Notes: generated from the letters alone by a model not told the origin. A stretch of DNA of 64,000 nucleotides from Escherichia coli (GCF_024502345.1 NZ_JALDNN010000001.1), one strand, 5' to 3'; positions 51,848-54,892 are shown, counted from the stretch's first letter. Program-made: numbers and translations.

Positions 51848-52438
51848 ATGTCTCGAATTTTTGCTTACTGTCGGATATCAACGCTGGATCAGACCCCCGA
51901 AAATCAACGCCGGGAAATCGAAAGTGCAGGTTTTAAAATCAAACCTCAGCAAATAATCGAAGAACACATTAGCGGCTCAGCAGCAACCAGTGAGCGTCCT
52001 GGTTTTAACCGGTTGCTTGCTCGCCTGAAATGTGGTGATCAATTGATTGTGACAAAACTGGATCGCCTTGGTTGTAATGCAATGGATATCAGGAAAACAG
52101 TGGAACAACTGACCGAAACAGGTATCAGAGTGCATTGCTTAGCATTGGGGGGCATTGACCTGACCAGTCCAACAGGAAAAATGATGATGCAAGTAATTTC
52201 AGCAGTCGCTGAATTTGAACGAGACCTTTTACTTGAACGCACTCATTCCGGGATAGTAAGAGCCCGGGGCGCAGGGAAACGTTTTGGTCGACCACCTGTG
52301 TTAAATGAAGAACAGAAACAGGTGGTATTCGAACGAATTAAGTCAGGTGTAAGTATAAGTGCCATTGCCCGGGAATTCAAAACCTCGCGGCAAACCATTT
52401 TAAGAGCCAAAGCAAAACTTCAGACACCTGACATATAA
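51848..52438 (+). CDS. pin: Serine recombinase, Pin-like DNA invertase (PinQ/PinR type)
   Basis: 196-aa [15 protein letters not shown]...; resolvase/invertase catalytic N-domain plus C-terminal HTH. Confidence 0.85.
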
Positions 52439-52535: not shown

Positions 52536-53111
52536 CTACGGCAGTGCTGGCCATTCAATATCCTGTGCAGTTGACGTATCAACACGGTTCAGCAATACCC
52601 GATACTTTTTCCATGCTTCCAGCAACGAGATTTCTTCCTCCGTTGCAATTTCCAGATCTGCAGCATCCTGAAGCGGCGCAATATGCTCACTGGCTACCTG
52701 CATCAGGTTGTTTTTTGTTTCTTCCGCCTCCCGGATCCGGAACAGTTTTTCTGCTTCCGTATCCTTCACCCAGGCTGTGCCGTTCCACTTCTGAAACTCC
52801 CCTTCCGGGGATAACCAAGTGACATTTTCCGGTAATGGGCCAAGTTCAGAAATAAATAACGCGTCGCCGGAAGCCACGTCATAGACGGTTTTACCCCGAT
52901 GGTCTTCAACGAGATGCCACGATGCCTCATCACTGTTGAAAACAGCCACAAAGCCAGCCGGAATATCTGGCGGTGCAATATCGGTACTGTTTGCTGGCAG
53001 ACCTGTATGAGGTGGAATATATGCATCACCTTCACCAATAAATTCATTAGTTCCGGCCAGCAGATTATAAATTGTTATGGTCCGTGGTTGTTCACTCATT
53101 CTGAAATCCAT
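52536..53111 (-). CDS. tfa: Tail fibre assembly protein Tfa
   Basis: 191-aa from the ATG preceded by an AGGTG SD; ...[37 protein letters not shown]... as recalled for TfaQ/TfaR. Confidence 0.85.
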
Positions 53112-53119
53112 GTTCACCT

Positions 53120-54022
53120 CTACTTAATATCAGAGACAGAATATTGTTTATTGAACGTATGGGTGTGAGCACCAATAACGATGCTACTTCCGTGGCTATG
53201 TGCGCCAGAGATGACATTACCTACGGGATTTTCTGGATTAATCCGGTGTATATGCGAACCAGGGCGAAACCGGTTATTAGCCTGATGTTGTATCAGTACA
53301 TCATCAGCCTGATGTTCAGGGTTAATACAGACCTGCCCGGAACGTGAGCAATACGTCCGATAATCGCCGCATCCAATATATTTAGTATCCGCATAACGGC
53401 AAACAGAATTACCCGGACAGTATGCATATGTGCCAAATACTGCCGACTGGCGGGATTGTGCGTATTCCCAGTTAATTGATTCTGTTTTTTTATTAAAGTT
53501 ATCCCATGCCTGCTTCATCTGCCGGGCAACACTTTCAAACGGCACCTGACCACATCCGGCTCCCATTGCAGGGAATACCACCGTTTTTATTTTCCTGTCT
53601 GTCGTTGCGTGTTTATTGTGCTGAAAGATGGCAAGCAGAGCGGCCCAGGTTGCGTTATATACAGCGTCTGTTCCGTCAATTGTCAGCGGAACACGCATTG
53701 TTGGCGCATGTACCAGCCAGGGATGATGATTATGCCCCGTTTCAATAACAAATGCAGAACCTACAGGCTGCTCGCCGAGATATTCACGAAGAATATGATT
53801 CTGAACGCGGGACTGTAACTGAGTACCGAAGAATGCGGTAATGGCGGCATCAACACCGCCATCCATCAGGCCGAAACTGTTTGCCGCACTTACCATGCAG
53901 TCAAATTCCCTGATTGTTTCAAATGGCTTTCCGACAATATTCACATTATCTGCATTTGCGAATACCCGCTTAAATGCTTCAGCCATTTCTGTTACTGGTG
54001 CAGAAAGAATGAGCGTAATCAT
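53120..54022 (-). CDS. Macrodomain protein with tail-fibre-like His-x-His C-terminal region
   Basis: Macrodomain motifs [42 protein letters not shown]; C-terminal ...[18 protein letters not shown]; ATG overlaps the stop of the upstream stf fragment. Confidence 0.6.
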
Positions 54023-54186
54023 GCAAGCCTCACAATATAGTTAAATGCGATGTTTTTGACGGTGTTTTCCGCGTTACCAGCAGCGTTAACGGTGATGGTG
54101 TGTCCATGTGACCCTATCGCAACGGAGTGCGTATGAGCACCAATACCGACAGTATGCGCGTGTGCACCTGCAGATACTGCTGTAAA
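54019..54186 (-). pseudogene. Side tail fibre (Stf) C-terminal fragment
   Basis: ...[51 protein letters not shown]; joined out of frame to the terminase fragment upstream. Confidence 0.7.
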
Positions 54187-54892
54187 AACGCATGAAATGT
54201 GCCGACTCGTTAGCGGCTTTTTCGATCTGGCAGGAGCCTTTGATTTTAGGCGTCGAGCCGCGAATGGATTTTGGCCATACAGAGCCCTCAATACGTTTAT
54301 CCCCCAGCAGGGTTGGCGAACCCTCTTTTTCAACATCCGGTTCGAACGAGGAAAGTTCGTCATAGCAGACCACATCCACGGATTTTTCACGGTAGTTTTT
54401 GGCGGCAGCGCCGCCCAGGCACCATAAACCGACGCCCGATGAAAAGCGTTTCAGCGTGAGGGTATTATCACGATGTTTACGACCCAGCCATGGGGAAAGG
54501 TCTTTCAGGCATGGCACGTCCCTAATCGTCGTCTCCACGTGAGACTTCATAAAATCTTCAGCGGCAGAATCCGTGGGCTGAAAAAGCAGACTGTTTCGGG
54601 ATTTATGCTCAATAAAATACCCGACCACCCCCAGCAACATCTTTGTATAGCCAACACGGGCAGATTTAATCAGATTAACTGTGCGGATCTGATCATTCCC
54701 CATACTGTTCATGATGGCGATCTGGAACGGCAGCGTTTTCCATTCGCCGTCACCGTATGAGGATTCTTTCGGCAGATAATAATACTGATCAGCCCATTCA
54801 ACTGCCGTCATCGGTACAACCCTGACCAGAGGCTGCAGCGCAACCGAAACGGCAGCCATCAGATTATTCAGTTGTTGCTCTGATATATTCAT
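54185..54892 (-). pseudogene. Terminase large subunit (lambda gpA-like) N-terminal fragment, about 235 codons
   Basis: MNISEQQLNNL...PMTAVEWADQYYYLPKESSYGDGEWKTLPFQ...[41 protein letters not shown] closely parallels lambda gpA 1-215, then similarity stops. Confidence 0.85.

Follow-up and report, generated by a model that had tools for sequence, protein, structure and literature searches.

What is a gene for a macrodomain protein doing between the end of a side-tail-fibre gene and tfa, the gene of the tail fibre assembly chaperone, in an Escherichia coli prophage? We address this question for one open reading frame (ORF), hereafter the macro ORF, in a stretch of 64,000 nucleotides of E. coli DNA (GCF_024502345.1 NZ_JALDNN010000001.1), referred to as the window, from whose first letter all positions are counted (Table 1). 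The ORF comprises 300 codons from its ATG start and lies in a decayed, Qin-like lambdoid prophage adjoining prfC/osmY, in which the gene order runs terminase small subunit, N-terminal part of the terminase large subunit, a deletion junction, the end of the fibre gene stf, macro, tfa, pin, ydfK and a DinI-like gene. An earlier note on this DNA had described the macro gene as overlapping the fibre frame at its start and as ending 8 nt before tfa, and this description stands: the macro ATG overlaps the TGA stop codon of the stf remnant as ATGA (54019-54022), a GAGG within the last stf codons forms its Shine-Dalgarno sequence, and the macro stop codon is separated from the tfa ATG (53111) by 8 nt, AGGTGAAC, which contain a Shine-Dalgarno sequence in turn. 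When scanning the macro ORF for promoters and terminators, we found sites at a frequency not above the shuffled expectation and none that bracketed the ORF, which accordingly lacks the promoter and terminator of its own that mark an autonomous moron; a search for a composition anomaly likewise returned a base composition like that of its flanks. Judged from the sequence, co-transcription and translational coupling of the macro gene with the fibre and chaperone genes are firmly predicted. Elsewhere in the prophage remnant, we observed two cspA-type thermoregulator 5' leaders (Rfam RF01766; 57566-57963 and 60794-61233, both on the minus strand), each preceding a cold-shock gene, as is the case for cspI and cspB in the Qin prophage of K-12.

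Table 1. Positions of the features discussed, in window coordinates, with the evidence for each.
Feature	Position	Strand	Evidence
macro ORF	53120-54022	-	ORF translation, Pfam Macro
Macro2/Ymx7-type macrodomain including N-terminal beta-alpha extension, residues 1-195	53438-54022	-	Pfam, AlphaFold, Foldseek, profile
Cysteine-rich segment, residues 196-245	53288-53437	-	invariant columns in the alignment of 15 relatives
Variable His-x-His tail, residues 246-300, and stop codon	53120-53287	-	hhalign against Stf C-termini
Side-tail-fibre (stf) remnant, last 54 codons	54019-54184	-	identity to the E. coli 06-00048 fibre gene
Terminase large subunit N-terminal part, lambda gpA-like	54185-54892	-	ORF translation; annotation in matching genomes
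tfa, tail fibre assembly chaperone	52536-53111	-	phrog_105, E 4.8e-99
pin-type serine invertase, convergent with tfa	51848-52438	+	phrog_125 DNA invertase, E 5.4e-68

We examined the macrodomain by profile search and by structure prediction with a fold search, and both matched it, so that the earlier claim of a macrodomain is upheld and the domain is real and complete. The Pfam Macro model (PF01661) aligns over its full length (1-118) with residues 44-169 (E 1.5e-18), with signature segments at residues 44-61, 104-112 (VHAPTMRVP) and 147-161 and with the motif residues N48-x6-G55 G56 V57 D58, H105 and the loop G154-A-G-C-G158. In the AlphaFold model, which was built on 67 relatives, residues 1-195 reach a pLDDT of 93-99, whereas residues 200-300 are poorly predicted. 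Searching the PDB with Foldseek returned 207 matches at E<=0.001, of which the best 50 of 207 are macrodomains throughout, the first of them being yeast Ymx7/YMR087W (1njr, E 2.8e-11). By profile and by fold, the protein thus belongs to the macro superfamily (PF01661), and within it the Macro2/Ymx7-like clade is the closest in both sequence and structure. The family profile aligns with 1njr at E 1.1e-15 (profile 2-178 to chain 15-217, the N-terminal extension included), and in this alignment N48, D58 and H105 fall on Ymx7 N80, D90 and H145; Asn80, Asp90 and His145 are reportedly the catalytic residues proposed by Kumaran et al. in 2005. Across 15 close relatives (alignment A1), none of the three residues varies, and among 67 diverse ones (alignment A2), conservation of N48 and D58 is at least 90%. 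The Macro_2 model (PF14519) matches the ORF weakly and partially (E 4.3e-4), and among the NCBIfam macro models every one scores far under its curated cut-off. Beyond the N-terminal extension, the protein shares with Ymx7 (1njr, 1txz, 1ty8) the N-x6-GG-[VF]-D motif and the His of the H-x-P-T strand; it differs from this eukaryotic housekeeping enzyme in that identity is about 21% and that Ymx7 has no Cys/His-x-His tail, and an equivalent activity of the phage protein is a prediction. Overall, we regard it as firm that macro is a genuine gene under selection, with a Macro2-type active site that is intact as far as its residues indicate.

[quoted passage not shown] The suggestion in the earlier note that the protein reverses ADP-ribosylation is weakened for this reason, since the clade assignment points towards a different type of reaction. 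The DarG/AdfM (ALC1-like) clade was also considered and rejected: PADLOC returned for the macro ORF a marginal DarG match alone (E 0.0048, 38 residues), and the DarG macrodomain 5m3i ranks 24th in the PDB fold search, well behind Ymx7. In the viral fold search, the best matches came from giant viruses and jumbo phages, with the tk.4 homologue of Acinetobacter phage 133 at rank 29 (E 8.5e-5, 15% identity).

Next, we investigated the C-terminal third of the protein. Within the cysteine-rich segment, Y201, C202, C208, C225, C232, H237, Q238, D240 and D241 are invariant across the 15 relatives of alignment A1, and AlphaFold places two beta-hairpins there at a pLDDT of 55-66; from this conservation, the segment (residues 196-245) is probably a small metal-binding module. 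It is followed by three His-x-His (HxH) motifs, H257/H259, H275/H277 and H286/H288, in a stretch of low AlphaFold confidence. The earlier note had remarked that this C-terminus resembles the fibre end upstream, and the likeness is borne out both by hhalign, which pairs the C-termini of the family (A4) with those of the Stf fibres (A5) at a probability of 88% and E 3.3e-6, aligning HxH...NKQYSVSDI of the macro tail with HxH...NAENTVKNI of the fibre, and by a 22-nt direct repeat of 86% identity between the macro tail (53160-53181) and the stf remnant (54128-54149). The profile-profile match of the HxH runs suggests that the macro tail is descended from a fibre 3' end. However, the note's further idea that a fibre C-terminus was captured locally does not hold, because all full-length relatives aligned have the same architecture of macrodomain, Cys segment and then 1-4 HxH repeats with a variable end, which makes the fibre-like tail a trait of the family. 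The Cys/HxH module has no match in Pfam or among PDB sequences, and upon searching for fusions to other domains, we saw only family members and truncated remnants among the matches listed. That the Cys/His tail is specific to this family and related to fibre tips is a firm reading of these comparisons.

The protein as a whole is neither a fibre nor a chaperone by the features that define them. Collar and fibre Pfam domains are missing from the macro ORF, save for Phage_fiber at E 7.9, and, unlike gp37/Stf-type fibre proteins, it neither flanks a tip insert with HxH runs nor has their C-terminal ending. AlphaFold on three linked C-termini, as a pseudo-trimer, reached a pLDDT of 30, too low to speak for or against trimerisation. 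It is also not a member of the Tfa (Caudo_TAP) family, and its PHROG matches are to phrog_2613 and phrog_14717 only. The fibres that stand upstream of macro genes are themselves of the T4 gp37/lambda Stf type, since a search with the profile of their C-termini (A5) finds 2xgf, the tip of T4 gp37, at E 2e-26. The GxHxH repeats in the last ~45 residues of the macro protein can be aligned to the C-terminal HxH run of such a fibre, whose gene the macro gene directly follows; in contrast to gp37 and Stf, the macro protein has no collar, no second HxH run across a tip insert and no ...AFNYIVRLA end, and its N-terminus is a globular enzyme domain. The His-x-His motifs of gp37 are said, after Bartual et al. 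in 2010, to coordinate iron ions along the trimeric needle.

Comparing divergent pairs of family members, we obtained a dN/dS of 0.10-0.16 for the macrodomain, about 0.1 for the Cys segment and 0.3-0.45 for the tail, values that indicate strong purifying selection on the macro gene. Decayed copies were encountered as well: one on a plasmid is frameshifted, another is interrupted by IS3, and many in Salmonella are remnants truncated at the N-terminus, so that decay in resident prophages is common even though intact copies are under purifying selection. Copies damaged by truncation, frameshift or IS insertion include P0278, P0291 and P0272-P0280 (Salmonella), L011 5989-6880 and record H13, and some of the truncated forms occur on ~100 contigs each. 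The match in SEN34 is a short macro remnant downstream of an O-acetyltransferase gene.

The window itself preserves an intact macro gene in a prophage that has lost all of its head and tail genes. The stf remnant is 99.9% identical to the 3' end of an intact 2940-bp fibre gene in E. coli 06-00048, with homology ending at 54184, and the terminase fragment, annotated 'phage terminase large subunit family protein' in matching genomes, begins its homology at 54183. At this deletion junction (~54183/54184), the N-terminal part of the terminase large subunit is fused out of frame to the last 54 stf codons, the deletion having taken with it the head genes, the tail genes and the larger part of stf. 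The fibre fragment that the earlier note described upstream of macro is therefore present, but it amounts to just these 54 codons joined out of frame to terminase. The same junction occurs in 0 of 5426 complete E. coli genomes. Other strains carry terminase-to-fibre fusions of their own (K-12 nohA/stfQ; records H89 and H118). At the same chromosomal site, E. coli 06-00048 retains an intact prophage end, with the full fibre gene, a macro gene of the same length (99.9%), tfa and pin. The macro copy of the window is an intact passenger stranded in a dead prophage, and its expression may be weak, if there is any.

The tfa gene of the window shares ~97% DNA identity with tfaQ of K-12, and 97 bp separate it from pin, in the same layout as pinQ in the K-12 Qin prophage. 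The Rfam family IS009 (RF02111) matches 52570-52768 on the minus strand with 220.9 bits; as this match is wholly contained in the 3' half of the tfa reading frame, the 'sRNA' family coincides here with a conserved protein-coding stretch. The Pin invertase that had been pointed out beyond tfa is there, but none of the marks of a Pin/Gin/Cin invertible fibre segment accompany it: we found no crossover core of the AAACCNNGGTTT type (gix/pix-like) at 51-55 kb of the window, no long inverted repeats around the macro cassette, and no second fibre-tip/tfa (Sv'/U') set near pin, where a single tfa is present. We firmly conclude that pin is an orphan invertase in the window and that macro lies in no invertible segment.

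Upon extending the analysis to other genomes, we find that macro together with its HxH tail recurs beside tfa across several kinds of phage. The triad of fibre, ATGA overlap, macro and tfa is seen in lambdoid prophages (E. coli 06-00048, Salmonella Gifsy-1), in the P2-like phages Chuche and SEN4/SEN5, in P1-like phage-plasmids and in an Erwinia myovirus-type prophage. Many protein clusters of the macro family come from E. coli, Salmonella, E. albertii, E. fergusonii, Citrobacter and Erwinia, so the family, as its homologues delimit it, is widespread in enterobacterial prophages and is not peculiar to the window. Among complete E. coli genomes, macro DNA is found in 127 of 5426 (2.3%), with 22 copies on plasmids. 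The Qin prophage of K-12 provides the comparison without the gene. Its fibre end (93% identical to that of the window over the last 162 nt) and its tfa (97%) abut directly, from which the macro ORF is a clean optional cassette of ~910 bp; on this comparison, we consider it firm that macro is dispensable for closely similar fibre/chaperone pairs. The direct abutment also contradicts the earlier view of macro as sitting in a slot normally held by a fibre tip or chaperone. K-12 stfQ, which had been proposed as possibly the same gene, was rejected, since StfQ is a fibre C-terminus without a macrodomain and only HxH motifs align. In a spread sample of 60 E. coli records, macro was the sole insert seen at the fibre-tfa junction. 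Between the window and Chuche, macro is 89% identical, against 74% for the fibre 3' end and 69% for tfa; as it is better conserved than its flanks, the cassette must have been transferred among fibre modules, each time to the same position.

The earlier note could not assign the arrangement to a described system, and we also found none in the literature, which holds neither a functional study of the macro family nor virion-proteome data for it as far as we found; the family as such is nevertheless already known to databases. PGAP names its members 'macro domain-containing protein' or 'phage tail protein', PHROG 2613 is listed as 'unknown function', and the Gifsy-1 copy STM2588.1n already carries a pfam01661 annotation. 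In related elements, tfa is directly followed, on the opposite strand, by genes for the modification of surface polysaccharides, namely a serine acetyltransferase (L010 7493-8038), an LPS N-acetylglucosaminyltransferase with a DapH/GlmU-like acyltransferase (L011 7520-9206) and an O-acetyltransferase (L008 3769-4860), and the fibre end is thereby also a site of conversion genes in these elements.

Beyond the family, relatives of the macrodomain (residues 1-195) at 35-65% identity occur in many organisms, either as stand-alone proteins of ~200 aa or fused to unrelated domains, and several of the multi-domain forms look eukaryotic by their sequences. The closest macro-only relative, P0121 (64% identity, 207 aa), is encoded on a phage contig (L012 2104-7161) beside two ParB_N genes and a gene for a 460-aa methyltransferase, in a block just upstream of the terminase gene that, from its gene content, looks like an anti-restriction or accessory island and not like a tail region. 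The macro proteins of jumbo phages, phiRSL1 ORF054 (L005 3971-4507), Noxifer gp265 (L006 3983-4630) and FBKp24 gp159 (L007 3914-4513), are stand-alone proteins of 180-215 aa amid non-structural genes such as those for RNA 2'-phosphotransferase and thymidylate synthase; in FBKp24, the macro gene lies five genes downstream of the RNA 2'-phosphotransferase gene. The labels under which they are annotated, 'tail protein' or 'phage tail assembly-like', seem to have been carried over from the enterobacterial family, and we rejected these proteins as evidence of a structural role, given that they stand alone among non-structural genes.

Small optional genes that are linked to a receptor-binding module and spread with it are known from other phages, such as llp of T5, which lies beside pb5, and cor of phi80, N15 and HK022. 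The products of llp and cor are receptor-blocking membrane proteins or lipoproteins, whereas macro has a nucleotide-binding enzyme fold of cytoplasmic type and no signal sequence. Phage macrodomains acting in counter-defence are a recent finding, shown only in 2025-2026 for AdfM against DarTG2 (10.1101/2025.11.20.689424; PMC13309987). AdfM of T4 (Tk.4) counters ADP-ribosylation by DarT2 enzymatically (10.1101/2025.11.20.689424), and the AdfM proteins of chimalliviruses (PhiKZ gp104 and PhiPA3 gp108) are macrodomain anti-DarT2 factors (PMC13309987). The likeness to the macro ORF is that of phage-encoded macrodomains; AdfM is a stand-alone, DarG-like protein (ALC1 clade, N/K active site) that is encoded outside fibre modules and has no fibre-like tail.

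The account that we lean towards, as a possibility short of a probability, is that macro encodes an accessory enzyme, expressed late, whose substrate is a small molecule of the 1''-substituted ADP-ribose type and whose role is probably counter-defence. The exchangeable 'fibre tip + Tfa' module would carry macro as an optional cassette, and the macro product would join a domain of Macro2 (Ymx7) type, enzymatically competent as predicted from its residues, to a putative Cys/His metal-binding segment and a fibre-derived HxH tail. With no promoter or terminator of its own and with its coupling to the fibre gene, it would be made late in infection alongside fibre and chaperone. In the infected cell, the macrodomain would bind and hydrolyse its small molecule, for which the candidates are a compound like ADP-ribose-1''-phosphate or an NAD-derived immune signal or by-product, and this may blunt NAD/ADP-ribose-based host immunity triggered by late structural proteins; the Cys/His tail could serve for oligomerisation or docking. 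The observations on which the account draws are the fold, the conserved active-site residues, the purifying selection, the conserved slot and the optional presence of the gene. Enzymatic function is supported by Ymx7, a phosphatase of the same clade whose active-site residues align, and by P0121 and the relatives in jumbo phages and giant viruses, as the genes of P0121 and of the jumbo phages lie in non-tail regions. Counter-defence is made plausible by AdfM, where macrodomains of another clade counter DarTG2, by published cases of several defences that respond to late structural proteins, and by the finding that the side tail fibre and its chaperone trigger type II Thoeris, which signals through His-ADPR, in Pseudomonas phages (10.64898/2026.06.04.730250). 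Against it, macro lies in a late operon, whereas early expression has been described for many of the counter-defence genes that are well studied; the macrodomains known to act against DarT fall into another clade, the DarG-like one; and the Thoeris link comes from unrelated, N4-like Pseudomonas phages. A soluble enzyme alone would also leave the strict conservation of the slot and the fibre-derived tail unexplained. The position between the fibre and chaperone genes would have a functional reason if the HxH-tethered, co-translated Macro2 domain destroyed or sequestered a 1''-linked ADP-ribose signal, such as His-ADPR or gcADPR, at the place where TIR- or NAD-based defences sense the folded fibre-chaperone complex, as type II Thoeris does in Pseudomonas phages. 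Macro would then be an anti-signalling enzyme of a novel, trigger-coupled sort, a version that we regard as unlikely.

The fixed slot and the fibre-like tail are better explained than under the enzyme account if macro is a virion protein, in which the HxH tail, folded with the aid of Tfa, would trimerise or dock on the gp37/Stf tip and display the macrodomain as a receptor-binding or receptor-modifying (esterase- or phosphatase-like) domain. The slot between the fibre gene and tfa is constant across lambdoid, P2-like, P1-like and Erwinia contexts, with macro as the sole insert at the junction in the 60-record sample, and the cassette always enters it even as it moves between fibre modules; start and stop codons overlap as they typically do in structural operons, the C-terminus resembles the HxH run of gp37-type fibres, and the tail evolves faster and varies in repeat number, as receptor-binding tips do. 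However, closely similar tips and Tfa proteins work without macro in K-12 Qin, the known ligands of macrodomains are intracellular nucleotides, macro has one HxH run where gp37 has HxH on both sides of the tip insert, the literature yielded no virion proteomics for any member, and the 'tail protein' names elsewhere look like annotation transfer; taken together, we judge a place in the virion somewhat unlikely, although it is the chief competitor of the enzyme account. A benefit to the lysogen, through altered host NAD/ADP-ribose physiology or the exclusion of superinfecting phages, would suit the location, as the tail-fibre end of a prophage is a classic place for conversion genes and acetyltransferase and glycosyltransferase genes occur just downstream of tfa, and macro is intact in the decayed prophage of the window at 99.9% identity to the copy in the intact one. 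A moron-like gene of this kind is nonetheless improbable, given a gene that has no promoter or terminator of its own, whose ATG overlaps the fibre stop codon, that is co-oriented with the late operon and that resembles its flanks in composition, and given the truncated remnants common in Salmonella, by which retention in lysogens is not strict. We give similarly little credence to recombinational hitch-hiking, whereby the gene would persist, with little or no benefit, through its flanks (the fibre 3' end and the tfa 5' end), which are more recombinogenic than any other sequences in enterobacterial phages, and the HxH tail would be a scar of insertion into a fibre gene. The tail does look like a truncated copy of the fibre end, the cassette is rare (2.3% of E. 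coli genomes), and remnants and frameshifted copies are frequent, but a dN/dS of ~0.1 in the macrodomain and the Cys segment, held across saturated synonymous divergence, and invariant active-site residues speak against it. The probability that is left over falls to explanations outside these four.

The locus thus encodes a predicted macrodomain enzyme of phages that is unusual in its fusion and constant in its genomic position, already named in databases, for which we found no functional study in the literature. The family is common in Salmonella, where Gifsy-1 carries it, and is present in lambdoid, P2-like and P1-like elements of E. coli; what is unique to it is the fusion to a fibre-derived, probably metal-binding tail and its fixed place in the most frequently exchanged module of phages. 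As a counter-defence enzyme, macro would widen phage anti-immunity by a substrate class and by a late, trigger-coupled timing, whereas if it is borne on the fibre, it would be the first case of a macrodomain at work outside the cell. Under either reading, the family would be relevant when therapeutic phages are engineered by exchange of their tail fibres, since macro is carried along with the fibre tip.
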